Source: Candidatus Falkowbacteria bacterium (GTDB lineage Bacteria; Patescibacteriota; Patescibacteriia; Patescibacteriales; UBA12465). From it: a stretch of 64,000 nucleotides of DNA. Positions 3,188-63,576 of the stretch are shown piece by piece (position 1 is the first letter of the stretch; each line of letters begins with the position of its first letter). The notes below the pieces were generated by a model that was not told the origin of the DNA, made no database searches, and worked only from the letters and a program-made list of their open reading frames with translations. The position numbers and the translations under genes were made by a program. The DNA is taken from NCBI GenBank assembly GCA_903847415.1, contig CAINDR010000015.1:33872-97871 (forward strand), read 5' to 3'.

Positions 3188-4161
3188 GCGAATCAATCAA
3201 AAGAAAATATAACATAGGCATTGGCAGAGAGACTACGAGGGGCGTAAAAGTTACGCCAAAGTATTGGCTTAAGCCACTTAGTGCTGAATATAACGATAAG
3301 ATTGAAACTGTTGCCAGCGAGCGTGCTTGCGGAGTCATTGAGGATTCCGAGGAGATGATCATTAAGAATAAATATTCGGATGGTCAAATCCAAGGTGAAG
3401 CCTTTGACAAGAGTTTTGGCTTATTCATTTTAGGGGCGTTGGGTCAGGTTAGTAGCGTGGCTAAAGTTGGTGACTTAGCGGTTTATGATCACACCTTTTC
3501 AGTTTTACAGTCAGCTAAACATCCAACTTTTACTATTGAGGTTAAAAGGGGTGATGTGGAGCAGAAGTCTTACGGCAATTGCGTGATTGAAAGTTTAAAG
3601 ATTGAAAGTCAGGCACATGATTATGTTAAATTCGAAGCCAAGTTAAAAGGCAAGACCAGTGGAGTGGCTACGAATAGTGCTGGTTATGTGACTGAGAATT
3701 ATTTTTTAGGCAAAGATGTCAGTGTGAAATTGGCTGATAATTTATCAGGACTTGACTCGGCGACAGTGATTGATGCTAGAAAAATCACTATACAGATTGC
3801 CAAGAATTTAGAAGAAGATAAGCGACTAGGTGCCGATGAGCCGAATGATTTTCTTAATAAAGAATTATCTATTGAGGGAACGCTGGAGATATTGTTTAAG
3901 GATAGCACGCTTAAGGACTACGCTTTGAATGGCATTCAGAAAGCCTTGCGGATTGATATCGTTAACACAAACAAAGTCATCGGATCATCTAGTAATCCTC
4001 GATTAAAGATTGATCTGGCTAAGATTAAATTTAAGGATCCAGTCGAGGGTGGTGATAATAACGATATCGTTAAAGTCACAGTTGGCTTTAAGGGATTATA
4101 CTCAGCGACTGATTCCAAGAGTATTGAAGCCGTATTAACTAATTTAGAAACTAATTACTAA
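3184..4161 (+). CDS. Major tail protein (putative)
   Basis: 325 aa, beta-rich. Located between head-tail joining genes and the chaperone/tape-measure pair. Confidence 0.4.
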   Translation: MSESIKRKYNIGIGRETTRGVKVTPKYWLKPLSAEYNDKIETVASERACGVIEDSEEMIIKNKYSDGQIQGEAFDKSFGLFILGALGQVSSVAKVGDLAVYDHTFSVLQSAKHPTFTIEVKRGDVEQKSYGNCVIESLKIESQAHDYVKFEAKLKGKTSGVATNSAGYVTENYFLGKDVSVKLADNLSGLDSATVIDARKITIQIAKNLEEDKRLGADEPNDFLNKELSIEGTLEILFKDSTLKDYALNGIQKALRIDIVNTNKVIGSSSNPRLKIDLAKIKFKDPVEGGDNNDIVKVTVGFKGLYSATDSKSIEAVLTNLETNY

Positions 4162-28288: not shown

Positions 28289-30289
28289 ATGAATAGTGAA
28301 ATTGCAGTTTTTGCGCAAACAACTTATCGCAACGAATTTAAAAAATTTGGAATTAAAACTGACGATAGACGCCGTCATATGTATTTGATTGGAAAGACGG
28401 GTATGGGAAAATCAACAATCTTAGAGAACATGATTATTGATGATATTCGAGCCGGGAGAGGAGTAGCGGTTGTTGATCCACATGGAGATTTGGCTGAAAA
28501 AGTGATTGAATATATTCCTAGCGAAAGAATTGGTGATGTTGTTTATCTTAATCCTTCCGATATTGATTACCCAATGGCTTTTAACGTGGTTGAGCAAGTT
28601 GATTCCCACCTCCAGCATTTAGTTGCTTCTGGGTTAATTGGTGTTTTTAAAAAACTATGGGCTGATTCTTGGGGGCCACGGTTGGAATATATTTTACGTA
28701 ATGCTATTTTAGCAATTTTAGATTACCCAGGTTCAACTTTAATGGGCGTAGTCCGAATGCTTTCCGATAAAACTTATCGAAAAAAAGTAGTTGCTAGTAT
28801 TAAAGATCCGATGGTTAAATCTTTTTGGGAAAAAGAATTTGCTGGCTACGCAGATAAATTTGCCTCAGAAGCAGTTTCTCCAATTCAGAATAAAGTTGGT
28901 CAATTCTTGTCTAGTTCTTTGATGCGCAACATTATCGGACAAGTCAAATCATCAATCGATGTTCGTAAGATAATGGATGAGGGGAAAATTTTAATCATGA
29001 ATCTTAGTAAAGGCAGAATTGGTGAGGATAACTCTGCATTATTAGGAGCAATGATGATCACAAAAATTCAGCTAGCGGCAATGAGCCGGGTTGATATTCC
29101 CGAAAGCGAACGAAAAGATTTCTATCTCTATATTGATGAATTTCAAAATTTTTCCACTGATAGTTTTGCTAATATTCTTTCGGAAGCTCGAAAATATCGT
29201 CTTAACTTAGTGATGGCTCATCAGTATATTGAACAGCTTGGGGATGTTGTGAAGGCAGCAGTTTTTGGTAACGTTGGCACATTGATTGTTTTCAGAGTTG
29301 GAGCAGCGGATGCTGAAGAGTTGGTCAAAGAGTTTACCCCAACTTTTACCGAAGAAGATATTGTTAATTTGCCAAAATATGAAATGTATTTACGTTTAAT
29401 GATTGATGGCATCACCTCTAATCCTTTTTCTGCCAAAGGCTTAGTACCTTTGCGTGCTGATGAAAAAACTGGTAATACTGAAAAAATTATCAACTATTCT
29501 CGAGAAAAATATTCTGCTCCTCGGGCTTTAGTGGAGGAGAGAATTATGAAATGGCATGAAAGCGAAGATGATGAAAAAGATAAGGAGTTTGGCGAGAGAA
29601 AGGCTTTTCCGAAAAATAATCCTGGTAATTTTTTGCCAAAAAATAACCAGTTTACTTCAAAAACACAAACCTACTCTAACACCCAAGTTTCTAATACTAT
29701 TTCCAATACAGTTTCCAAGACGGATGTAACTGTGAGTCAGACTTCAGCTCCTCAAGCAGTGACACCACCACCAGCCAGCGTTAAACCGGTTTATGAAACT
29801 CTAGCAACACCAATTTTAACAAAGGCACCCCTAAAACCAAACACGCCGATTCAAAGTCAGACAACAAGCAGCAGAATCCCCGCAGGAAAAACATCAACTG
29901 AGTGTAGTAATTGTGGCACAATTACTTTCGTTTCTTTTCAACCAGATGGAATTCGTCCAGTTTATTGTCAAAACTGTTTGATAATTAAAAAAGAAGAAAA
30001 ACGTCAGGAGGCGGAGGCGCGTCAAAAATTGAAACAAGCCGAGTTAGAAAAAATAAAAGAAGTAGAAAAGAAAACTGAAAACTATGTTGATGAAGTTTTT
30101 GAAAGAACTGCTAACCTGCCAGAACCAGTTTCACTTGGTCAGCTTAATGATCTAAAGCCCGTTAATTTTAAGGGCAGAGAGATCAAGGAATCACCAGTCT
30201 CAGCAGTAAAAAATCTTAATTTTAACGATTGCGAGTCTATTGATGAAGGGGAGGAAATAGATTTTTCTCGAATTCCTGGTAGTAATTAA
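28289..30289 (+). CDS. FtsK/HerA/TraD-superfamily P-loop ATPase (T4SS coupling-protein-like) with C-terminal Zn-ribbon
   Basis: YLIGKTGMGKST Walker A and YLYIDEFQNF Walker B. Long S/T/Q/P-rich linker. CSNCG...CQNC zinc ribbon. No TM segments. Confidence 0.5.
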   Translation: MNSEIAVFAQTTYRNEFKKFGIKTDDRRRHMYLIGKTGMGKSTILENMIIDDIRAGRGVAVVDPHGDLAEKVIEYIPSERIGDVVYLNPSDIDYPMAFNVVEQVDSHLQHLVASGLIGVFKKLWADSWGPRLEYILRNAILAILDYPGSTLMGVVRMLSDKTYRKKVVASIKDPMVKSFWEKEFAGYADKFASEAVSPIQNKVGQFLSSSLMRNIIGQVKSSIDVRKIMDEGKILIMNLSKGRIGEDNSALLGAMMITKIQLAAMSRVDIPESERKDFYLYIDEFQNFSTDSFANILSEARKYRLNLVMAHQYIEQLGDVVKAAVFGNVGTLIVFRVGAADAEELVKEFTPTFTEEDIVNLPKYEMYLRLMIDGITSNPFSAKGLVPLRADEKTGNTEKIINYSREKYSAPRALVEERIMKWHESEDDEKDKEFGERKAFPKNNPGNFLPKNNQFTSKTQTYSNTQVSNTISNTVSKTDVTVSQTSAPQAVTPPPASVKPVYETLATPILTKAPLKPNTPIQSQTTSSRIPAGKTSTECSNCGTITFVSFQPDGIRPVYCQNCLIIKKEEKRQEAEARQKLKQAELEKIKEVEKKTENYVDEVFERTANLPEPVSLGQLNDLKPVNFKGREIKESPVSAVKNLNFNDCESIDEGEEIDFSRIPGSN

Positions 30290-42499: not shown

Positions 42500-43084
42500 T
42501 TGAAAAGTATTATTATAATGACTTCAGATATTGACAATCATTCAACGGTCTTAAGCGATGAGGAGTTAATGCAGCAATCGTTGTCCAACCCTCAAGCTTT
42601 TGCTACGCTAATCGCTCGTTACAAAGGGTTATTTTTTCGTTATCTAAAAAGTTTTTCTGGTTTGCGAGATGATGAGATTGAAGATGTCGTCCAAATATCT
42701 TTTATAAAAATATATCGCAATCTCAAAGCTTTTAGAACTGATTTGAAGTTCTCCTCCTGGGCTTATCGGATTATCCACAATGAAGCGGTGGATGAGATTA
42801 AAAGGCGACGGCGACAAGGAAGTGAAAATGAGCTAGATTTAGATTTGCCAGACAAGATATCTTTGGTTGATCAATTAGATGAGAAGTTGGAGAGAAAAAA
42901 AGTTTTGGCAGTTTTAAAAAAAATGAGTCCTGATTATCGAGAAATATTAACACTTTATTTTTTTGAAGGGCAATCATATCAAGAAATTTCAGATATCCTT
43001 AGGCGGCCATTGGGAACGGTTTGCACTCAGATTAATCGGGCTAAAAAACAGTTTAAAGAATTATACCAAAAATATGTTAGATGA
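42500..43084 (+). CDS. ECF-type RNA polymerase sigma factor (sigma-70 regions 2 and 4)
   Basis: Region 2 FSSWAYRIIHNEAVD and region 4 REILTLYFFEGQSYQEISDILRRPLGTVCTQINRAKK. Confidence 0.75.
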   Translation: MKSIIIMTSDIDNHSTVLSDEELMQQSLSNPQAFATLIARYKGLFFRYLKSFSGLRDDEIEDVVQISFIKIYRNLKAFRTDLKFSSWAYRIIHNEAVDEIKRRRRQGSENELDLDLPDKISLVDQLDEKLERKKVLAVLKKMSPDYREILTLYFFEGQSYQEISDILRRPLGTVCTQINRAKKQFKELYQKYVR

Positions 43085-43841
43085 TTTAGAAAAAAAAATT
43101 ATCAATGAAATCAGTAATGGTAATTTAAAATCAACTAGTCGTTTCTTTTTGACGCTAAAATCTCTTGGTCGTTCTTTTTTGTTGGCTGTATTTTTGTTTC
43201 TTTCCGGATTATTTCTTTCTGTGCTCTATTTAATCATTAGACACGGAGATTGGGATCTTTATCGTTTTTTTGGTTATTCGCCATTATCTTTTTTTGTAGT
43301 TGCTTTTCCTTATTTTTGGTTAGTGGGCGGCTTGTTTTTTCTGATTTGGTCTTTAATTATAACCAGAAAAACTAATCAGGCTTATCGGTATCCTCTGGTT
43401 TATAATGGAATTTTAGGGATGCTTATTATTCTAATAATTTCAATGATTTTTGTATGGTCTGGGGTGGGGATAAAAACTGAATCTTTTTTATCTTCCAATT
43501 ATTTTTATCGTCAGGCTAACTACTTGAGATCATTATGGGACAATCCAGACAGAGGTTTGTTGGCTGGAACGCTTGAGCGCCTAGCAAATGACCAGTTATC
43601 ATTACGCGATTTTTCTGGAAAATTATGGACCCTCAATCTAAGAGAAGAAAAGATTATAAATCAATCATTATTGAATCCTGGTAATCGGGTGAAAATAATC
43701 GGATTTATAGAAGATGATTATTTCGTTGTTAAAGAGGTTCGTCATTGGGAATGCGGCTGTCCTCATTGTGCAATGATTAATAGCGAATGCTCTAGTTGTT
43801 CTTCCGGTTTTTGTTCAGATTCTTCTTGTCGGGTGAAATAA
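43074..43841 (+). CDS. Anti-sigma-like membrane protein with Cys-rich C-terminus
   Basis: Overlaps the sigma stop (ATGTTAGATGA). About four TM segments. C-terminus WECGCPHCAMINSECSSCSSGFCSDSSC. Confidence 0.35.
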   Translation: MLDDLEKKIINEISNGNLKSTSRFFLTLKSLGRSFLLAVFLFLSGLFLSVLYLIIRHGDWDLYRFFGYSPLSFFVVAFPYFWLVGGLFFLIWSLIITRKTNQAYRYPLVYNGILGMLIILIISMIFVWSGVGIKTESFLSSNYFYRQANYLRSLWDNPDRGLLAGTLERLANDQLSLRDFSGKLWTLNLREEKIINQSLLNPGNRVKIIGFIEDDYFVVKEVRHWECGCPHCAMINSECSSCSSGFCSDSSCRVK

Positions 43842-43903: not shown

Positions 43904-44173
43904 ATGACAAAAAAAACTATTTCAGCTTTTGCTGTTGCAACATTGTTTTTGGGTGGTTTAGCCTTTTTTATTGGATCAAATGCTCTAAAAACTGAAGCAA
44001 AAGAAGCTGTGTTGACTGATGTAGGCTCTAAACCAGCCGCCTGTAAAGCTTTAATAAAAGATGGTTCTTGTGGCTGCACTGCAAATGGTGGAACTTGTAA
44101 TTGTGGAAAAACTGGATCAAATTGTGCTGCTAACGTTAATCAAAAAGCTACTTGTGGCTGCGGGGCAAAGTAA
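43904..44173 (+). CDS. Secreted/membrane-anchored Cys-rich small protein
   Basis: 89 aa. N-terminal hydrophobic helix. Ten Cys in the last 45 aa with CGC, CNC, CGC spacing. Confidence 0.4.
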   Translation: MTKKTISAFAVATLFLGGLAFFIGSNALKTEAKEAVLTDVGSKPAACKALIKDGSCGCTANGGTCNCGKTGSNCAANVNQKATCGCGAK

Positions 44174-44200
44174 TTAAGTTTTCAACAATTTTTGAAGCAA

Positions 44201-44225
44201 AGCCAGTTTAATCACTGGCTTTTTT
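44201..44225 (+). terminator. Rho-independent terminator
   Basis: AGCCAGT ttaatc ACTGGCT followed by TTTTT. Confidence 0.6.
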
Positions 44226-44375
44226 GTTTGCCAAGGCAGTTTTATAAGAAAATCCTCCAATAAACTACATAGATTGTATTTTGTTTTTTTCTGATTTTTT
44301 AAATAATATCTTTTTACAATAGACCTATTTTTTAAAGTCCTATCCTTATTTCTTTATCTTTTCTGAAAAATAAGC

Positions 44376-44381
44376 TATAAT
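44376..44381 (+). promoter_or_regulatory. Candidate -10 element TATAAT upstream of the putative RT-associated ncRNA
   Basis: Perfect TATAAT 8 nt upstream of inverted-repeat arm a1. No convincing -35. Confidence 0.3.
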
Positions 44382-44389
44382 AATGAAAC

Positions 44390-44572
44390 AATTATCCTCA
44401 AAACCCTTTTTTAGGGATATTAACAGCTATCGTCAATCAAGTCTTTTTTTACCGTTAATATCGGTGACTTGTTCTTTGATAATAGTTTAACGAAGCGCGG
44501 CCTCACGGTTTTGCTCCTCGATGGATTAAAATAATATTTCAGAGATTTCTCTTAAATATCTTGAGGATAATT
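44390..44572 (+). ncRNA. Putative retron-like (msr/msd-type) structured ncRNA bounded by a perfect 12-bp inverted repeat
   Basis: AATTATCCTCAA (44390-44401) pairs with TTGAGGATAATT (44561-44572), which ends 6 nt before the RT ATG. The interior has a compound hairpin CAAGTC-T7-ACCG-ttaatat-CGGT-GACTTG (44438-44471) and further stems. Structure was predicted by eye only. Confidence 0.35.
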
Positions 44573-44578
44573 AAAAAT

Positions 44579-45781
44579 ATGTTTGAAAAGATTATTAGCG
44601 ACGCCAATTTACAGGCGGCGTATTTGAAGATTGTTGAGCAATTTGCTGCCGAGAAAAAAGGTTCTCGTTATCATGGCTTGGACAATCTTTTTTTAAAAGA
44701 TTTTGATTTAGATTCTTGCGAATTGATTAAATTAATTCGGCAAGAATTGCAAACTAAAACAGAAATTAGTCCGGCTTTAGCAATAAAAATTCCGAAAAAA
44801 AACAATCCCGAAAAATTTCGGGAGATTTTTGTTTATAATTTAAAAGAGAGAATTAAAGCTCAGGCAATTTTTCAAATCCTTTTGCCCGTATTTGAAAAAC
44901 ATTTTTCTGATCGTCTTTTCTCTTATCGTCCCGGTAAGCCACCGTATCTAGCTGCAAAATATTTTTGTCGCCGCTATCGAGATTCTTTTACTCAAGACTA
45001 TCTTTTTGTGGTTGATTTGGAAAATTATTCTGATTTAATTGATCATGACTTATTGTTAAGTTATTTATCTGAAATTTTTGTTGAAGAAGAAGTTATTTCT
45101 ACTCTCAAGTTATTTATTGGGAATAAGGTGTATCGTTCTGGAACTATTGAAAAATTGAAACAGGGCTTGGTTCAGGGGGTTCCCTTGATTGCAATGTTCT
45201 CAAATCTTTACTTAAGTGATCTTGATTTTAAGTATCAAAAAAAAGTGCCATTTTATCTTAGGGTTGGTGATGATATTGCTTTTTTTGATCGCTATCCTCA
45301 AAAATTAGAAATTTTAAAAAATAATTTTGTTAGCGATCTTCAGAAAAAAAAGTTAAAAGTTAGTGAAAGCAAACAATATTTTGGTCCAGCAAATGGAGAA
45401 TTTTCTTTCCTTGGTTATTCTTTTTTTCAGGGCCTTATTAGTTTGGAAAAGAAATATTTAAAAAGAATTGTTTTGGAGTGGAAAAATATTTTGAGCAAAC
45501 AAAAATTAAGCGATAACAAAAAAGACTTGTTCATAAAAAAGATAATGTTTAATCCCCGTAGTAATTATAATTTTCAATTTGAAAAAATTATTAAGGATAA
45601 ATCGCAAATTAACAACTCTGAACAGATTAAAAAAGTTTCCGAAGAATTTTTTAAAATTATGACTAAATTTTTTTATACTCGCTATTCTCCTCGCAATCGT
45701 CGCTTGCTAGAAGATCGTCTTCGATCTTTTGGCTTGAAGTCACTTTATTTTTTTTATAAAAAATTTCATTATGAGCGTTAA
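44579..45781 (+). CDS. Reverse transcriptase (retron / group-II-like family, free-standing)
   Basis: RT motifs 1-2 IPKKNNPEKFREIF...FSYRPGKPPYLA. Motif A FVVDLENYSDLIDHDLL. Motif B' GLVQGVPLIAMFSNLYL. Motif C RVGDDIAFF (YxDD variant). Motifs 6-7 FSFLGYSF. ATG at 44579 (track starts at TTG 44561). No intron RNA domains and no maturase/endonuclease extension. Confidence 0.8.
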   Translation: MFEKIISDANLQAAYLKIVEQFAAEKKGSRYHGLDNLFLKDFDLDSCELIKLIRQELQTKTEISPALAIKIPKKNNPEKFREIFVYNLKERIKAQAIFQILLPVFEKHFSDRLFSYRPGKPPYLAAKYFCRRYRDSFTQDYLFVVDLENYSDLIDHDLLLSYLSEIFVEEEVISTLKLFIGNKVYRSGTIEKLKQGLVQGVPLIAMFSNLYLSDLDFKYQKKVPFYLRVGDDIAFFDRYPQKLEILKNNFVSDLQKKKLKVSESKQYFGPANGEFSFLGYSFFQGLISLEKKYLKRIVLEWKNILSKQKLSDNKKDLFIKKIMFNPRSNYNFQFEKIIKDKSQINNSEQIKKVSEEFFKIMTKFFYTRYSPRNRRLLEDRLRSFGLKSLYFFYKKFHYER

Positions 45782-47456
45782 CAAAAAACAAATTAATTTA
45801 TTGAAATCAATTCGCTCAATTCGGAAAAATTATCAAGAGGTGATTTTGAGTAAAAGGCATTGGCGATTTTTGTTTGGTTTTTTACTTGATCATCGTTTGA
45901 GTTTTGTGATTTTAGTTTTTTTGTTCTTTGCTCAGGGTTTAATTGAAGCAATTTTTATTATTTTTAGTCGAAACCAAATATCTGGCGGTCTTTTGCCTTT
46001 TTTTTGGGAATTTTTAGGACTTTTGCTATGTTTATTTTTTCTTAATTCTTATTTTTCAATTCGTCAAGAAAAAACTTTGGGAGTTCTTTTTGCTAACAGT
46101 TTAAGAAAAAGAATTTTTGAAGATTATCTTCGTCGTCCGTCTGCTAGTTTGAATCAAAAAAACCAAGCTGATTTAATCGCTAAAATGTCTTATCAATTAC
46201 CGCTAGCTTCAATGGGGGTGGTTAATTCTTTTTTTGGTGCTTTGCGTTGGCTGATTAATATTTTAGTAGTACTGATACTACTAATTAAAAGTGATTTATC
46301 TTGGTCCTTAGCTTTGTTGTTTTCTTTAATCTTTTCAGCGGTAATTGGTCTGATTAGTTATTTTATTTCCAAAAGTTATGTTTCTCAGGAAGTAACTTTT
46401 TATTCTCAAATTATTAGAGAGGTTGGAATTTCTACTAATGATCGATCTTTTCTTAAAATTTTTAATCAAGAAAAAAAAGTTCTTCAGCGATTTGATCAAT
46501 TAGTAGATTTTGATTCTTTTTTTCGAATTCGTCGGGATCTTTGGTTGAAATTAAGTGTAAAAATTCTTTTTGCCCTTTTATTACTATTATCATTATGGTT
46601 TCATTTTTCTTCATCAAATCTATTATTGGAATTTAATTTAATCTCCTCAGAAAAGAAAATAATTCTTCTATTTCTGTTTATTTATTTTTCTCGAATTTTG
46701 TATGAAAGTTTACGGGTTGGTCTTTATCTTTGGCCAGCACAGCTTGGTTTGTATTTAACGATTCCAAAGTCTGGTCGTAATTTTTGTCGAGATCGGGTTC
46801 TTAAATTTGAGACCAGTTTAAATTTTTATGGTCGAAAACTAAAATTATTTTTGGGAGCGAGTTATCAGAAAAATTTTTCTTGGTTTTTTGAGAAGGGAAA
46901 GCGTTATCTTTTTTATTCTCCTTCTTCGACTGGAAAATCATCACTGGCTCGGGCCTTTTCTGGTCTAGAAGTATTTGAGCCAAAATCTTTAAGAATTAAA
47001 ATTGACGGCAAGCGTCTTGATTTTCAGAGTTGGCAACGTTTTAGCGAGGGAATTTGTTTTATTGATCCAAATTTTTTTTCTGAGAAAAGTATTTTTGAAT
47101 TTATTATTGGTCAAAATAGGAAGAATCAAGATCTTCCTTCAGTAGAGAGTGTTTTTCAAGTTCTTCGTCTTTATCCGGAGTTATTAACAAGAATTTCTCG
47201 GGAAGGAAACTTTAATGTTAGCGCTGCTTCTGTTCTAGGTAGCCCGATTAGTGCTTTTGCTCTTTATTTGGCTCGTTGCTTGGTGAGCAAGCCAGCTTTA
47301 GTGGTTATTGATAATTTTTGGCTAGACTTAGCTTACGAAGAAATCAATAAAATGCTATTATTATTAGACCAGGAATTACCAAATTCAATAATTGTTGTTT
47401 TTTCTAGAAAAGACAATAGTTATTTTAATTATCATCAAAAATATGAACTTAATTAA
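45771..47456 (+). CDS. ABC-exporter-like membrane protein with degenerate nucleotide-binding domain
   Basis: Overlaps the RT stop by 11 nt. About six TM helices, then an NBD-like region. It has a P-loop-like SPSSTGKSS, a degenerate signature, and Walker B VVIDNF without the catalytic Glu. Confidence 0.5.
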   Translation: MSVNKKQINLLKSIRSIRKNYQEVILSKRHWRFLFGFLLDHRLSFVILVFLFFAQGLIEAIFIIFSRNQISGGLLPFFWEFLGLLLCLFFLNSYFSIRQEKTLGVLFANSLRKRIFEDYLRRPSASLNQKNQADLIAKMSYQLPLASMGVVNSFFGALRWLINILVVLILLIKSDLSWSLALLFSLIFSAVIGLISYFISKSYVSQEVTFYSQIIREVGISTNDRSFLKIFNQEKKVLQRFDQLVDFDSFFRIRRDLWLKLSVKILFALLLLLSLWFHFSSSNLLLEFNLISSEKKIILLFLFIYFSRILYESLRVGLYLWPAQLGLYLTIPKSGRNFCRDRVLKFETSLNFYGRKLKLFLGASYQKNFSWFFEKGKRYLFYSPSSTGKSSLARAFSGLEVFEPKSLRIKIDGKRLDFQSWQRFSEGICFIDPNFFSEKSIFEFIIGQNRKNQDLPSVESVFQVLRLYPELLTRISREGNFNVSAASVLGSPISAFALYLARCLVSKPALVVIDNFWLDLAYEEINKMLLLLDQELPNSIIVVFSRKDNSYFNYHQKYELN

Positions 47457-48639
47457 ACAAATTAGGCAAGGCAACTGTCGCGATAGTTTGCCAATGTTTT
47501 TTTTCTCCACAGTTATTTTGTTGTTAGTGATGTTCTTGTTGTTTATTTTTTTCAAATACTATTTTAATTCAGATAATAGTTCTGATTTTAGCTCCACAAA
47601 AACTCTTGTTGTTGATGAGCCGTTTTCTGGGCAGCTTTATTTTAATGATGAATTAGGAGAGAAGGTTTTTTCTCCAGTAATCATCGAGGCAATTTCTAAA
47701 GCAAAAAAAAGTGCAGAATTAGCAGTTTATTCGATGGATGATCAAGGAATTCGTGATGCCCTTTATCGAGCTTCTAAGCGAGGCGTAAAAGTAACAATGG
47801 TGCTTAGTGATAAGCGAAAAGATGGGCACGATCAAGTTCTTCAAAATCTGCCGAAAGAGATTAAACGGATTGATGCGCCGTCAAGTGAAGGTTATATGCA
47901 CCACAAGTTTTTAATTCTTGATCGAGGATCAAATCAGGAAAAGTTATTTTTTGGTTCTTATAACTTTACCGCTCTTCAGGAAAAATATGATCCTTCTTTT
48001 TTGCTAGAAACTACTCGACCAGAGATTGTGAAGATTTTTGGTCAAGAATTTGATCGCTTAAAAAATGAAGTTTATGGTCGGAAGAAACTTAACTCTCGTC
48101 AAATTTATTTGATGACTAGAATTAAATATCCAGAAGGATTTTTGGAGATTTGGTTTTCTCCACAGTTATCTCGTGGTGGTTTGAGGGAAAGAATGCTTGG
48201 TTTGATTAATAATTCGAAGGACAATCTCAAGGTAATGATCTGGAATTTTACCAGCAAAAGCATGGCACTTGATATTGCTGATGCGGCAGTCAGAAAAAGC
48301 GTGAGAATTATTGCTGATGATTTAAATTATTCACTTCCAGAGTCCGCTTTCAACACCTTGTTGTCTGAAAAGGGAAGTCGTTCTTTGGAAAAATTAGAAA
48401 TAATTACTGATGCCAAACGAAATGAAGAAGCGATTCGCTTGTCTGGTGATAAAAGTTTGAATTCTTTCTTACATCATCACCTTCTTTTGGTTGATGATCG
48501 GGTAGCAGTTTTTGGCAGTGGCAACTGGAGTAATAATGGTTTTTATAGCAACGATGAGTCAACGATGATTTCCGATATTAATATTTTAGTTCAGCCATTC
48601 ATTGAGTCTTGGCAAAAAAATTATGAGCACAATAAGTAA
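47443..48639 (+). CDS. Phospholipase D-family (HKD) protein, N-terminal TM anchor
   Basis: Overlaps the upstream stop by 14 nt. HKD motif 1 is HHKFLILD...GSYNFT. Motif 2 LHHHLLLVDD...GSGNWS has K replaced by H. Confidence 0.6.
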   Translation: MNLIKQIRQGNCRDSLPMFFFSTVILLLVMFLLFIFFKYYFNSDNSSDFSSTKTLVVDEPFSGQLYFNDELGEKVFSPVIIEAISKAKKSAELAVYSMDDQGIRDALYRASKRGVKVTMVLSDKRKDGHDQVLQNLPKEIKRIDAPSSEGYMHHKFLILDRGSNQEKLFFGSYNFTALQEKYDPSFLLETTRPEIVKIFGQEFDRLKNEVYGRKKLNSRQIYLMTRIKYPEGFLEIWFSPQLSRGGLRERMLGLINNSKDNLKVMIWNFTSKSMALDIADAAVRKSVRIIADDLNYSLPESAFNTLLSEKGSRSLEKLEIITDAKRNEEAIRLSGDKSLNSFLHHHLLLVDDRVAVFGSGNWSNNGFYSNDESTMISDINILVQPFIESWQKNYEHNK

Positions 48640-48649
48640 TTAATTTTTT

Positions 48650-49081
48650 ATGATTTTGAGAAAATTTTTTCATTTCTTTGATCTCTTGGAAAACAAGATT
48701 AGACAAACTTTAAGCCGCCATCCTTTTATTTATGCTTTTTTAGGTGGTGTTGGAGTAGTAGTCTTTTGGCGTGGAGTTTGGGTGACGTCGGATTTTTTAA
48801 TGGCCAAAATCACAAAAATTCCTGTTGATATTTTGTGGTGGGATGGACCATTAACCGTATTAGTTAGTTTATTGATTCTTTCTCCTCTTGGTATCTTTGT
48901 TTCTAGCTTTATCGGGAATGAGGTGATTATTTCGGGGATTAGAGGCGAAAAAAAGATGTTTGAGAAAACAGAAGCCGAAATTGAAAGCGAATTAACAATT
49001 GGTTCCAGAACTTATAGTAGTATCTCGGAAGTAGTGAATCGTTTGAAAAATATTGACAAAAAACTTGATAAAATAAAATAA
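48650..49081 (+). CDS. Small membrane protein (2 TM)
   Basis: 143 aa. Starts 10 nt after the PLD gene. TM segments FIYAFLGGVGVVVFWRGVWV and LTVLVSLLILSPLGIFVSSFI. Confidence 0.3.
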   Translation: MILRKFFHFFDLLENKIRQTLSRHPFIYAFLGGVGVVVFWRGVWVTSDFLMAKITKIPVDILWWDGPLTVLVSLLILSPLGIFVSSFIGNEVIISGIRGEKKMFEKTEAEIESELTIGSRTYSSISEVVNRLKNIDKKLDKIK

Positions 49082-49143
49082 TTTTTTATTTTTTGCGTAT
49101 TAATTAATAGAACCCCTTTGTAGGAGTTTAAAGGCTTAAATGC

Positions 49144-49737
49144 ATGTTGGAACCATTGGAAGATTATTCTTCTTTTTCAGACAATGAATTAGTGCTTTTA
49201 GCCTTAAAAAATCAGGCCATTTTTGCTATTTTAATGAATCGTTATAGTGAAAAATTAACTAGATATGCTCAACGAATCTCTAATTTAAGAACCGAAGAGG
49301 TTGAGGATGTTATTCAAGAGGTGTTTATTAAAGTCTATAAAAACCTCAATGATTTTGAAAGCGATCTCCGATTTTCTTCTTGGATTTATCGAATTACTCA
49401 TAATCAGGTTATTAGCCACCATCGAGCTAAAAATGCTAGACCTCAAACAGTGGAGATCGACGATGCTTTGGCTAATCGTTTGCGGGCGGAAGTTGACTTG
49501 ACGAAGGAAATCATTAGTCAAGACTTAAAGGTGGAAATCGCGACTTTATTAGCAAAATTAAAACCTATTCATCGAGAAATTTTAGTTTTGCGTTTTTTTG
49601 AGGAAAAGAGTTATGAAGAGATTTCAGATATTTTAAAAAAACCAAGTGGTAGTGTGGCCACTTTGATTTATTCAGCCAAAAAAGAATTAAAAGAAAAGTA
49701 TGAAAAATCTGAGCGACAAAGTCCTGGAAAAAATTAA
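49144..49737 (+). CDS. ECF-type RNA polymerase sigma factor (paralogue of 42500-43084)
   Basis: Region 2 FSSWIYRITHNQVIS and region 4 REILVLRFFEEKSYEEISDILKKPSGSVATLIYSAKK. Clearly alignable with the upstream sigma. Confidence 0.75.
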   Translation: MLEPLEDYSSFSDNELVLLALKNQAIFAILMNRYSEKLTRYAQRISNLRTEEVEDVIQEVFIKVYKNLNDFESDLRFSSWIYRITHNQVISHHRAKNARPQTVEIDDALANRLRAEVDLTKEIISQDLKVEIATLLAKLKPIHREILVLRFFEEKSYEEISDILKKPSGSVATLIYSAKKELKEKYEKSERQSPGKN

Positions 49738-50440
49738 ACAAGAATCAATTAAACCCCATCCTCGTTGGTATTTTTTAGCACGAGATTGTTTCTTGTGGTT
49801 TTTAGTTTCCTTGGTTACTATTTTAGGTGGAATTGCCTTTTCTTTGGTGATGCTTTTTCTTTATTTTCAGCGTTTTGGTTTTAGGAATCCTCATCCCGCT
49901 AGTAATTTTAATTGGCTACTTGTTTCCATTCCTTATGCTTGGTTATTCGTTTTTGTGGTGTTAGTGGTTGTGATTTACTATAATCTTAAACATCTCAAAA
50001 AAAGCTATAAATATCCACCTTACTTATTAATTATTGCATCATTAGTGGCTAGTATTGTTTTGGGTGTCATTATTTCAAATTTTGGAGTTCATCGGCGAAT
50101 GAATGATGAGTTTTCTCGTCGTGTGCCTTTCTATGGGCGAGTTTTTGATGCCAGGGTTCCAGCCTGGGGAAGACCGATGGAAGGAGTTCTAGCAGGGAAA
50201 ATTGGCAGAGTAGAGGAGGATTTTTTTCTTCTTGAAGATTTTCATGCCAAAGAATGGAAAATTGTTCTCCTCAAAGAAACAGAGGCAGTTGAATCAATTA
50301 AAATTGTTTCTGGTCAGTTGATTTTAATCAATGGTCGCCAGGAAGGTCCAGGGGTATTTGTGGCTGAAGAAATTTTTCCTTGGGATGGTTGTCCAAAAAA
50401 GTGTAAATTAATCAATTCGAATTTTCCAAGAATTCGGTAG
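49700..50440 (+). CDS. Anti-sigma-like membrane protein (paralogue of 43074-43841)
   Basis: Overlaps the sigma 3' end. Same architecture as 43074-43841. C-terminus has a single CPKKC. Confidence 0.3.
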   Translation: MKNLSDKVLEKIKQESIKPHPRWYFLARDCFLWFLVSLVTILGGIAFSLVMLFLYFQRFGFRNPHPASNFNWLLVSIPYAWLFVFVVLVVVIYYNLKHLKKSYKYPPYLLIIASLVASIVLGVIISNFGVHRRMNDEFSRRVPFYGRVFDARVPAWGRPMEGVLAGKIGRVEEDFFLLEDFHAKEWKIVLLKETEAVESIKIVSGQLILINGRQEGPGVFVAEEIFPWDGCPKKCKLINSNFPRIR

Positions 50441-61656: not shown

Positions 61657-63576
61657 ATGATTAATTTCAAAAATAACAATCAGCTTTCAGAGGATTCCTC
61701 GAAAAAACCGGATGTTTTAGATCGGATTATCGATCAAGGACAAAGGAGGACGACAGACAGTCTGGAGTCTGACCCAAAATTAACCAGGGAAATTATTGAA
61801 GAAGAAAAAGCATTTCGTCTTGGTATTTTGTCGGTTCGTGATCTGATTTCCCCCGCTAGCATGAAGGTTGATTCAACTTTTTTGCGCCTAGGATCTCGAT
61901 ATGTTAGAACTTTTTTTGTGGTTAATTATCCTAGATATATTAGCGTTGGTTGGTTTGCCCCAATTATCAACTTAAATTTAAATTTTGATGTTTCCATGTT
62001 TTTTTATCCAGTGAAGAGTGCTGTGATTTTAAAACAACTTCGAAATCGAGTTGGTGCTCTGGAAGCTCAGATCGCTGGTGATGCTGACAAAGGAGCGGCT
62101 CGTGACCCAATGAGAGAAACAGCGTTAAGGGATATCGAATATTTGCGAGATGCTTTGACGCAGGGGACTGAGAAATTTTTTCAATTTGCTCTTTATGTCA
62201 CCGCTTACGCCAATGATTTAGAGGAATTGGATCGGATTTCTGATCAGGTTGAGGATATTTTTGGCTCTCGTCTGGTTTATTCAAAACGAGTATTTTTTCA
62301 AGCAGAGCAAGGATTTAATTCAACCTTACCATTAGGAGACGATGAGTTGTACATTACCTTTAACATGAATTCTTCACCGATTGCTTCTTCCTTTCCTTTT
62401 ATTTCTAGTGAACTTTCTAGTGATCGGGGAATTCTTTACGGAATCAATCGGCACAATAATAGTTTGATTCTTTTTGATCGCTTTTCTTTGCAGAATGCTA
62501 ATTCAGTGGTGTTTGCGACTTCTGGTGCGGGAAAAAGTTATGCAATTAAGCTTGAGGTTTTAAGATCCTTGATGTTAGGGACGGATGTGATTATCATTGA
62601 TCCAGAGTATGAATATAAACATCTTTCAGATGCAGTTGGCGGAACTTATATTAATATCTCTCTTTCTAGTGACAATCGGATTAATCCTTTTGATTTACCC
62701 CGTTCAATTGGCGGAGAAGCTAGACCAAAGGATATCATTCGAAGTGCGGTTATCACCTTGAAAGGTCTGGTTCGCTTAATGATTGGTAAGCTGACTTATG
62801 ATGAGGATTCAGTTGTTGATCGAGCTCTTTTAGAAACTTATGCTAAAAAAGATATTACTCCGGACGCTGATCTCAGTAAAATCGAGGCTCCAACGATGAG
62901 TGATTTTGAGCAAGTTCTAGAAGGCATGGAGGGTGGTGCCGATCTGGCTTTAAGATTAAAAAAATATACTGAAGGAACTTTTGCTGGTTTATTGAATAAT
63001 TTTACGAATGTGGAGATGGATAATCAGCTCGTTAGTTTTTCAGTTCGTGATTTGGAAGATGAACTGCGACCAATTGCGATTTACACTATTGTTAATTATA
63101 TCTGGAACGTTGTTCGCAGTGAGACTAAAAAAAGAATTTTAGTAATTGATGAAGCTTGGTGGATGATGCAAAACGAAGATTCCGCGAAGTTTATTTTTGC
63201 CTTAGTAAAGAGATGCCGTAAATATTATTTAGGGGTAACAACCATTACTCAGGATGTTAATGACTTTTTAACCTCGCCCTACGGAAAAGCGATTGTAACT
63301 AACTCATCTTTGCAGATTCTTTTAAAGCAATCACCAGCGGCAATTGAATTAATTCAAAAAACCTTTTTGTTGACTGAAGGTGAAAAATATCTACTTTTAG
63401 AATGTGGATTAGGAGAGGGAATTTTCTTTGCTGGGAATAAACATGTCGCAATGAAAGTGGTGGCATCCTATTCTGAGGATCAGTTAATTACTTCCGACCC
63501 ACGTCAATTGTTGGAAATTGAAGAAGCTAAAAAAGAATATGAAAAAAGTGTCAGAGAAGAAGAGGCGGCTGCCTAG
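61657..63576 (+). CDS. Type IV secretion system ATPase VirB4/TrbE/TraC family
   Basis: Walker A ATSGAGKSY and Walker B ILVIDEAWWMM (DEAW). VirB4-type N-terminal region RTFFVVNYPRYISVGWF. Confidence 0.8.
   Translation: MINFKNNNQLSEDSSKKPDVLDRIIDQGQRRTTDSLESDPKLTREIIEEEKAFRLGILSVRDLISPASMKVDSTFLRLGSRYVRTFFVVNYPRYISVGWFAPIINLNLNFDVSMFFYPVKSAVILKQLRNRVGALEAQIAGDADKGAARDPMRETALRDIEYLRDALTQGTEKFFQFALYVTAYANDLEELDRISDQVEDIFGSRLVYSKRVFFQAEQGFNSTLPLGDDELYITFNMNSSPIASSFPFISSELSSDRGILYGINRHNNSLILFDRFSLQNANSVVFATSGAGKSYAIKLEVLRSLMLGTDVIIIDPEYEYKHLSDAVGGTYINISLSSDNRINPFDLPRSIGGEARPKDIIRSAVITLKGLVRLMIGKLTYDEDSVVDRALLETYAKKDITPDADLSKIEAPTMSDFEQVLEGMEGGADLALRLKKYTEGTFAGLLNNFTNVEMDNQLVSFSVRDLEDELRPIAIYTIVNYIWNVVRSETKKRILVIDEAWWMMQNEDSAKFIFALVKRCRKYYLGVTTITQDVNDFLTSPYGKAIVTNSSLQILLKQSPAAIELIQKTFLLTEGEKYLLLECGLGEGIFFAGNKHVAMKVVASYSEDQLITSDPRQLLEIEEAKKEYEKSVREEEAAA

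Follow-up and report, generated by a model that had tools for sequence, protein, structure and literature searches.

Reverse transcriptase (RT)-based systems, including retrons, defense-associated RTs (DRTs), abortive infection (Abi) RTs, and CRISPR RTs, have lately been a source of surprising biochemistry and of tools for genome editing. The RTs of retrons are recognized by an NAxxH motif and a VTG triplet (PMC7736814). Among the UG classes of RTs, a YcjD/Vsr-like endonuclease is found in 9 of 35 members of UG26, and UG17 is paired with a SLATT membrane effector (PMC9226505). Here we describe an RT cassette in a 64,000-nt stretch of DNA from Candidatus Falkowbacteria bacterium (assembly GCA_903847415.1, contig CAINDR010000015.1, positions 33,872–97,871, forward strand); we refer to this whole stretch as the window. 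Besides the RT, the cassette comprises a structured non-coding RNA (ncRNA), an ABC-exporter-like protein, and a phospholipase D (PLD)-superfamily protein. It resembles RT-based phage-defense systems but fits none of the described classes. By analogy to retrons and DRTs, we propose that the cassette could be a conflict system of RT and ncRNA, either anti-phage or by abortive infection, whose effector module is in the membrane. It would follow the same logic with different parts. We give this reading a probability of roughly 0.42.

We did not find a description of an RT-ABC-PLD system, or of its RNA, in PADLOC, NCBIfam, Pfam, Rfam, or the literature that we searched. A preliminary description of this DNA, made from the sequence alone, had not recognized the combination of ABC-like and PLD proteins either. 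The cassette and the small gene that follows it are laid out like this:

44376–44381, + strand: perfect TATAAT −10 box, 8 nt 5′ of the outer stem of the RNA
44390–44401 and 44561–44572: inverted repeat, AATTATCCTCAA and TTGAGGATAATT, complementary at 12 of 12 positions, with arms 159 nt apart (171 nt from start to start)
44390–44572, + strand: ncRNA (the covariance-model match spans 44368–44582)
44579–45781, + strand: RT, 400 amino acids
45771–47456, + strand: ABC-exporter-like half-transporter (predicted), 561 amino acids
47443–48639, + strand: PLD-superfamily enzyme (predicted), 398 amino acids (ATG at 47443; P0164)
48650–49081, + strand: small predicted protein with two transmembrane (TM) helices, 143 amino acids

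The preliminary description had reported a perfect 12-bp inverted repeat, with its partner arm 171 nt upstream and right after a TATAAT box, and an RT that begins 6 nt after the 3′ arm. We recovered all of these at the same positions, and alignments of homologs agree that the RT starts with the ATG at 44579. The tight operon is also as described: the ABC-like gene shares 11 nt with the RT gene and 14 nt with the PLD gene, and a 10-nt gap precedes the small gene. An alignment of upstream regions shows the TATAAT box unshifted in L007 and L008, which are the closest loci. A consensus scan found no −35 element to match it. Judging by its sequence and position, the box is likely the promoter of the cassette. 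Because it is the likely promoter, the ncRNA would be the 5′ end of the operon transcript.

To describe the distribution of the cassette, we scanned 185,579 species genomes with a nearly invariant peptide pattern, which identified 49 loci. Across about 50 loci examined with tblastn (RT identity 34–68%), the order RT, ABC, PLD was found in every locus with enough sequence, and the gene overlaps are kept as well. When we clustered the neighboring open reading frames (ORFs), only the RT, the ABC-like protein, and the PLD protein were universal (50, 48, and 45 loci, respectively). The downstream ABC-like and PLD genes are thus syntenic with the RT in the homologous loci, in keeping with the preliminary description. 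Three assemblies contain two divergent copies of the cassette, each with its own RNA, and the flanking genes vary among loci. After clustering at 90% identity, the RT has about 160 relatives, each of about 400 amino acids and all from Patescibacteria; these are named as Falkowbacteria, Magasanikbacteria, Parcubacteria, or Peribacteria. The cassette is probably self-contained and horizontally shuffled, and it is specific to bacteria of the candidate phyla radiation (CPR).

Some database records with the cassette carry other taxonomic names. Many records of metagenome-assembled genomes from third-party annotation (L007, L010, L014–L016, and others) are titled “uncultured Gammaproteobacteria bacterium,” the short contig L054 is titled Flavobacteriaceae, and protein P0143 is named Sphaerochaetaceae. 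These titles look like placeholders or binning errors, because the gene content indicates Patescibacteria.

The ncRNA is about 185 nt in the window. Across the family it is a multi-helix RNA of about 185–290 nt, with these parts in the window:

44390–44401 with 44561–44572: P1, the outer stem, which is the inverted repeat
about 44404–44416: P2, a small CC/GG hairpin
44416–44424 with 44454–44462: P3, a stem of GATATTARC and GTTAATATC
about 44463–44515: variable region, with a G+C-rich hairpin
44516–44532: conserved single-stranded block, CCTCGATGGATTAAAAT
44534–44545 with 44548–44559: P5, an 11-bp hairpin that adjoins the 3′ arm

The single-stranded block reads CCTCnTTGGATTTAAT in our description of the family. 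The variable region ranges from 32 to 64 nt across loci, and its hairpins are lineage-specific.

Several lines of evidence indicate that this structure is conserved. The folding z-score of the region is −4.66 relative to shuffled sequence, and in 16 aligned upstream regions, the alignment and RNAalifold show conserved helices with compensatory changes. We built a covariance model (R1) from 14 sequences. It scores 155 bits at the ncRNA, which is its single match in the whole window, and it matches directly 5′ of the RT in about 40 loci. In 29 sequences, whose alignment was fitted to the model, 94.1% of pair cells hold standard pairs, versus 34–48% in slid controls. In the same model-fitted alignment, 30 of 36 pairs have changes on both sides, and none of 500 shuffles reaches the observed values. 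In helix P1, 97% of cells are paired, and both sides have changed in 10 of the 12 pairs. Since P1 covaries across species, the inverted repeat is more than a chance match. The preliminary description had proposed that the RT is free-standing and that the operon includes an ncRNA of its own; folding and covariation bear this out, and the inverted repeat and the ncRNA are conserved in homologous loci. Rfam 15 has no match to the RNA region, either in the whole window at the gathering score or in 44150–49300 by E-value. As far as sequence comparisons can tell, the ncRNA is a new RNA family.

The association of the RNA with the cassette does not depend on searching with the RT. We scanned metagenomes with a 20-base RNA motif and obtained 52 pattern matches, of which 7 were true by the covariance model. 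All 7 of these RNAs have an RT at the same spacing 3′, followed by ABC and PLD where the sequence allows. The other 45 matches were due to chance; for a 20-base pattern with a variable gap and a collection of this size, we estimated about 30–55 random matches.

Could the RNA be a cis-regulatory leader only, such as an autoregulatory site that is bound by the RT, with the RT acting on other substrates instead of using the RNA as a template? The RNA always abuts the RT gene, as it ends 6–10 nt before the start codon across loci. Also, the closest relatives of the RT are group II intron RTs, which autoregulate via a high-affinity RNA site (domain IVa) at their own start codon. And the GAGG of the 3′ arm has two CCTC blocks within the RNA as possible alternative partners. 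On the other hand, we considered and rejected the idea that P1 sequesters a ribosome-binding site: Shine-Dalgarno-like sequences are nearly absent from this genome, and the GAGGA is 11–13 nt from the ATG. Just 5 of 48 genes in the window have a Shine-Dalgarno-like core, and none has it at the canonical spacing. (Among the ORFs of at least 150 amino acids in the window, 46 of 48 are on the + strand, and the start codons are preceded by A/T-rich leaders.) A multi-helix RNA of about 185–290 nt would also be large for a protein-binding operator, and in L010, two pilin-like genes part the RNA (3792–3988) from the RT.

Another argument comes from tandem copies of the RNA: the upstream copies lie away from any start codon and yet keep their structure. 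Two copies are found 5′ of a single RT in L017 (5506–5708 and 5809–6004), L037 (911–1195 and 1217–1512), and L055 (5380–5661 and 5684–5990). The copies differ mostly in the variable hairpins, and by fully compensatory changes; copy-specific differences are common to L037 and L055. Because the tandem copies keep their structure by compensation, we favor a component of a ribonucleoprotein (RNP) over a simple leader, and we consider a role as leader only to be quite unlikely. The leader and template roles are compatible and could coexist. In L017, the first RNA copy is followed by the first bases of the RT ORF and then by stop codons.

Turning to the RT, its sequence matches RVT_1 over positions 1–204 of 205 (E = 4.7e-14). 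It has fingers, palm, and thumb/X regions (RT0–7 plus the thumb), with FLGY in motif 7; neither the domain search nor the family alignment shows an endonuclease or DNA-binding domain. The preliminary description had noted VGDD in place of YxDD. The active site is indeed RVGDD, RVT_1 is complete, and the GDD is invariant in 34 homologs, as are D146 and K265 (the invariant residues are D146, G230, D231, D232, and K265). Since the catalytic residues are invariant in these 34 homologs, polymerase activity appears to be under selection. The RT seems to be catalytically intact and is predicted to be an active polymerase.

Which RTs is it related to? Among the PADLOC profiles, the best matches are the generic/CRISPR RT (1.9e-35), RT_UG26 (2e-31), and RT_UG17 (3.7e-25). 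The RT_UG26 match covers positions 14–288 of 398, which is the RT core only, and it is out-scored by the generic/CRISPR RT and by TIGR04416. In a profile search of the PDB, the RT of the group II intron GsI-IIC (1.1e-31) and Cas6-RT-Cas1 (1e-27) were far ahead of the retron Ec86 (2.5e-6). We also ran an exhaustive profile search against 1.84 billion representatives. The family of this RT forms a distinct block of about 45 full-length representatives, with scores from 538 down to about 235 bits. UG26-like RTs (437–483 amino acids) and RT-RT fusions score lower, followed by proteins of the CRISPR RT-Cas1 and RT-PrimPol kinds at about 130–160 bits. The nearest outgroup proteins match the UG26 profile over its full length. 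By these sequence comparisons, we classify the RT as group-II-intron-like or UG26-like, without a clear place in UG26 itself, and not retron-type. Among the nearest outgroups, proteins of 834–858 amino acids (P0326, P0328, and P0337) have two RT stretches and look like tandem RT-RT fusions; their best profile is UG26.

The preliminary description had called the system retron-like. This holds for the layout, with a terminal stem directly 5′ of the RT, and fails for the RT lineage, for NAxxH and VTG, and for the G after the 5′ arm. If the cassette were a divergent retron, the RNA would be msr-msd, it would give rise to multicopy single-stranded DNA primed from a 2′-OH, and the ABC-like and PLD proteins would be a restrained toxin. 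The 12-bp terminal inverted repeat and the tripartite layout with accessory genes would fit, and annotators at the Joint Genome Institute labeled some of the homologs as “retron-type reverse transcriptase.” But the similarity to Ec86 is weak next to that to group II RTs (1e-31), and among the retron models of PADLOC, the best is RT_IX at just 1.5e-6. NAxxH and VTG are absent from the RT sequence and from the family alignment. In the window, the 5′ arm is followed by AAAAC, and in the 29 aligned sequences, the consensus there is A-rich with no conserved G. There is no long hairpin of the msd type either; the sole hairpin that adjoins the 3′ arm has 11 bp. A divergent retron is therefore highly improbable.

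The similarity to group II intron RTs raises another alternative: the cassette might not be a cellular system but a mobile retroelement in remnant or variant form, be it a group II intron or a diversity-generating retroelement (DGR). DGRs are common in CPR genomes. However, neither Intron_gpII nor group-II-D1D4 matched, whether we used the gathering score or allowed E values up to 5. Where domains V and VI would lie, the stop codon of the RT is within the ABC gene. Intron RNA domains, which would have argued against the preliminary description, were not found. The group II model TIGR04416 scores 118.6 bits, as compared to a cut-off of 300, and the RT lacks an endonuclease or DNA-binding domain. 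As for DGRs, there is no pair of template and variable repeats in the 64-kb window: BLAST and a scan with the RNA that tolerated adenine mismatches returned self matches only. Also, the RNA is conserved across species, unlike the template repeat of a DGR. We regard a retroelement as extremely improbable.

A few other features of the RT sequence deserve mention. Ser151 (D146–D152 are encoded by 45014–45034) aligns to Phe143, the steric gate of the GsI-IIC RT, and most homologs have a small residue at this position. Together with Ser151, the RVGDD (Y226–D232 are encoded by 45257–45277) resembles the GDD motif of RNA-dependent RNA polymerases. One homolog of the RT has a precomputed match to the Pfam family for the Bunyavirus RNA-dependent RNA polymerase. 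The sugar selectivity of the RT may be relaxed, and a possibility is that RVGDD plus the serine at the steric gate lets it polymerize ribonucleotides. Within the coding region of the RT, the hairpin TCCCGAAAAATTTCGGGA at 44806–44823 is a perfect 7-bp palindrome that was flagged as terminator-like on both strands.

The ABC-like protein has six TM helices and a degenerate nucleotide-binding domain. Its sequence matches ABC_tran (8.2e-6) and, short of the Pfam gathering score, ABC_membrane (5.5e-4). Its AlphaFold2 model has a pLDDT of 83.2, and the top Foldseek matches of the model are MsbA, TM287/288, PglK, and TmrAB, with TM-scores of about 0.6. From this model, the protein is predicted to be a full-length type IV (MsbA-fold) half-transporter. 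The preliminary description had reported an inactive Walker B. The aspartate of Walker B is kept, so that part needs amending, but the domain is degenerate as reported: the family conserves only GK[ST] of Walker A and the Walker B aspartate, the catalytic glutamate is replaced by an invariant asparagine (IDN), and the LSGGQ signature and the H-loop histidine are absent (39 and 29 homologs). Overall, the set of Q-loop, LSGGQ, catalytic glutamate, and H-loop that marks a functional ABC exporter is not conserved.

The PLD protein matches PLDc_2 in two stretches (1.9e-32), and its AlphaFold2 model has a pLDDT of 92.6. It has the fold and the two motifs of the two-HKD proteins of the PLD superfamily, with the second motif as an HxH variant. 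Motif 1 is an intact HxK(x)4D, while motif 2 is HxH(x)4D; the change from K to H in the second motif, which the preliminary description had noticed, is invariant in the family. By sequence, the nearest proteins to each half are single-HKD nucleases (NucT, Nuc, and Zucchini): the matches are to NucT models in NCBIfam and to NucT, Zucchini/MitoPLD, and Nuc in the PDB. By structure, Foldseek matched the model to two-HKD PLDs, PLD3/4, F13, and PssA. The fold search did not separate a nuclease from a lipid enzyme, as TM-scores are about 0.6 to both kinds. In word-based searches for the PLD protein and for the ABC-like protein, we found no homologs outside the cassette. As these searches returned only cassette members, they gave no lead on where the pair came from.

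Where is the PLD domain located? All 39 homologs that we examined have a basic N-terminus followed by one TM helix, and summed across these, there are 188 lysines and arginines before the helix as compared to 81 after it. The basic tail, the single helix, and this bias suggest a signal anchor, so the catalytic domain is predicted to be extracytoplasmic. This makes the likeness to DrmC in the preliminary description doubtful. The PLD protein does match the DrmC profile in PADLOC (8.4e-20), but it scores 39.5 bits for NF038319, the DrmC model in NCBIfam, as compared to a cut-off of 133.

The preliminary description had also counted the small protein with two TM helices among the effectors. It has two weak hydrophobic segments and no family match in Pfam, PADLOC, or NCBIfam. 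Among about 50 loci, the gene is found only in the closest relative, L008 (72% identity). Because it is present in L008 only, the small protein lies outside the conserved core, and it is probably accessory or lineage-specific.

Upstream of the cassette, there are two more features on the + strand:

43904–44173, + strand: upstream gene, encoding an 89-amino-acid protein, with its own terminator 3′
44199–44222, + strand: terminator-like hairpin that ends the upstream gene, with a 9-bp stem and then a T-run

The 89-amino-acid protein is rich in cysteine and glycine, with a predicted signal sequence and no family match. The hairpin, judging by its form, sets the upstream gene apart from the transcription unit of the cassette. 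At 30.5–32% G+C, the cassette is below the window (about 35%), a difference that does not settle whether it was transferred. A backbone block (TrwB-like, glycosyltransferase, and carboxypeptidase genes) is directly 3′ of the cassette in L001 and is 10–16 kb 5′ of the cassette in the window. The window encodes a TrwB/VirD4-like coupling protein and a TraG/VirB4-like ATPase (28289–30289 and 61657–63576), and this TrwB-like gene and its neighbors are the ones directly 3′ of the cassette in L001. We considered a phage origin of the cassette and rejected it: there is one weak locus in IMG/VR (L056), and its two large neighboring ORFs have no Pfam match. In place of the small protein with two TM helices, the loci of a distant clade (L037:5753–6367; L039, L040, L042, L043, L047, L048, L049, and L055) encode a protein of 192–205 amino acids (about 197) 54–119 nt after PLD. 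It has an N-terminal TM anchor and a repeated domain (DYNTW...NFSQF...LLxQG), with no significant Pfam match.

Two kinds of neighbors recur. A pilin-like gene is the immediate upstream neighbor in L001, L010, L011, L052, and L053, and in L010 (2794–5992), three tandem paralogous type IV pilin-like genes lie around the ncRNA. In the window, a pair of genes for an extracytoplasmic function (ECF) sigma factor and a multi-TM (anti-sigma-like) protein is found on both sides of the cassette (42500–43841 and 49144–50440). This type of pair is also found 3′ of the cassette in L003, L007, L008, and L035. We rejected the idea that the flanking pairs are recent duplicates that mark an insertion: they are 39% and 23% identical, which implies that they are old paralogs.

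These neighbors, along with the predicted location of the PLD domain, would fit an envelope function instead: a trans-membrane machine for nucleic acids or lipids at the surface of the episymbiotic, auxotrophic CPR cells. The PLD protein might cut extracellular nucleic acid or host lipid, the MsbA-like protein might be a conduit, and the RT-RNA particle might process or produce the nucleic acid that crosses. The PLD relatives fit this idea: Zucchini is an RNA nuclease anchored in the membrane, and both NucT and Nuc are nucleases that are secreted or periplasmic. The ABC-like fold is similar to the flippase-like MsbA and PglK, and there are no defense genes nearby in the window. Against this, the patchy distribution and the several copies in some genomes would be unusual for housekeeping uptake. 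Also, the nucleotide-binding domain lacks the residues to power transport, and the adjacency to pilin and ECF sigma genes could be chance, as both are abundant in CPR genomes. And we know of no precedent for an RT that is coupled to a transporter. Overall, an envelope function seems unlikely, though it would account for several features. In a bolder reading, the cassette might be a trans-envelope reverse-transcription machine, with the RT-ncRNA particle docked on a hydrolysis-dead ABC scaffold. Nucleic acid (cDNA from the RT, or RNA or DNA that enters) would move through or along the scaffold, to or from an outward PLD nuclease. This is a long shot, but if true, the ultra-small, episymbiotic CPR cells would gain RT-coupled export or import of nucleic acids, for instance towards the host cell.

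We return to the conflict system with a membrane effector module, which is the reading that we prefer. Given the layout, the operon would be transcribed from the TATAAT box, with the RNA of about 185 nt at its 5′ end. This RNA, in which P1 closes a multi-helix junction, would be the cognate partner that the RT binds, as suggested by their strict co-occurrence and by the co-divergence of RNA and RT. By analogy to retrons, DRT2, and DRT9, the RT would probably make complementary DNA (cDNA) from part of the RNA, with the variable hairpin region as the most plausible template. The RT-RNA(-cDNA) particle may sit on the cytoplasmic domains of an MsbA-like dimer, which would be hydrolysis-dead but probably bind nucleotides. 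The TM part of the dimer may associate with the single-pass anchor of the PLD protein, which would fit the overlapping, translationally coupled genes and the predicted topologies. Much as in retrons, or in UG17 with SLATT, the RNP would hold the membrane module in check or sense infection for it. We speculate that an infection-dependent loss or change of the RNP turns the membrane module on, and that the exporter-like channel and the outward PLD damage the envelope or act on surface nucleic acid, which would halt infection.

Why do we prefer a conflict role? The contexts vary, some genomes have two copies, and there are few loci, so the cassette behaves like an accessory or conflict element. 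Also, the closest named RT groups are the defense-associated UG classes and the CRISPR-associated RTs, which favors a conflict role. The pairing of UG17 with SLATT is a precedent that makes a membrane effector for an RT plausible (PMC9226505).

A number of observations weigh against a conflict system. There are no known defense genes beside the cassette in the window and no recurrent defense neighbor in the 50 loci. The neighbors that do recur, the pilin-like genes and ECF sigma pairs, are surface-related, which might speak for a role in the envelope. In one lineage (L005, L031, L033, and L034), the cassette has the same neighbors, a pattern that stable vertical inheritance could produce. In the most divergent loci (L050–L054), model R1 finds no RNA, and direct alignment shows short conserved blocks only. 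Because its catalytic residues are lost, the ABC-like protein would be unable to carry out canonical ATP hydrolysis. Finally, an outward PLD domain would be unsuited to be an intracellular nuclease effector, so the effector step is the weakest in the model.

As a defense system, the cassette would act at the membrane through an effector logic that is new. Otherwise, it would be a still more surprising case, an RT that was recruited for a role in the envelope. To our knowledge, the immunity and the cell-surface biology of CPR bacteria are almost unexplored. The cassette brings a well-defined RNA family with strong covariation and an unusual RVGDD active site, and its RT-ncRNA pair is specific to this clade. 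Any new pair of RT and ncRNA may be a source of new biochemistry and of genome-editing tools. A degenerate MsbA-like protein plus a predicted outward PLD beside an RT is without a precedent that we know of.

How do the parts compare to known proteins? Like the exporters of the MsbA type, the ABC-like protein has six TM helices and a nucleotide-binding domain, and it keeps the Walker A lysine and the Walker B aspartate. Unlike these, it has asparagine for the catalytic glutamate and lacks LSGGQ and the H-loop histidine, so both sites of a homodimer would be degenerate, and in our word-based searches its family is found only within the cassette. The PLD protein shares the HKD fold with Nuc, NucT, and Zucchini, and each of its halves resembles a single-HKD nuclease, but it fuses the two domains as a pseudo-dimer and its second motif is HxH, not HxK. 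In its predicted topology, it is similar to PLD3 and PLD4, which are type II membrane proteins with two HKD domains on the non-cytoplasmic side. In contrast, DrmC is a cytoplasmic part of DISARM, while the PLD protein is predicted to be extracytoplasmic and has no DISARM genes nearby.

As for RT systems, the cassette shares with retrons an ncRNA directly 5′ of the RT with a terminal inverted repeat that closes it, along with the tripartite logic of an RT that is co-transcribed with accessory proteins. However, its RT is of another lineage, the NAxxH and VTG motifs, the branching G, and the long msd hairpin are missing, and no type of retron is known to have effectors of these types. Among the RTs of group II introns, the free-standing group-II-like RTs (G2L4), and the RTs of CRISPR systems are the closest solved structures by profile (GsI-IIC and Cas6-RT-Cas1), and these RTs share the RT0–7 plus thumb architecture and the FLGY of motif 7. 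In contrast to them, the cassette has neither intron RNA nor Cas1 but has a different ncRNA of its own, its RT has RVGDD instead of YADD or YIDD, and serine takes the place of the steric-gate phenylalanine. UG26, which like DRT2, DRT9, and UG17 belongs to the class 2 UG/Abi RTs, is the best-scoring named group for the RT, and the nearest outgroups are UG26-like, but the partner in UG26 is a Vsr-like endonuclease, whereas all of the cassette loci have ABC-like and PLD neighbors. Both DRT2 and DRT9 (UG2 and UG28) have a structured ncRNA 5′ of the RT, as the cassette does (PMC9226505). But the RT scores far lower for these (5.6e-6 for Drt2 and 3.9e-13 for Drt9 in PADLOC, and 27.7 bits for Drt2 in NCBIfam, as compared to a cut-off of 390) than for its best profiles, and the ncRNA has no match in Rfam. 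In sum, the cassette combines an RT with a dedicated ncRNA and accessory proteins, while its RT lineage, its RNA family, and its partner module match no described class.

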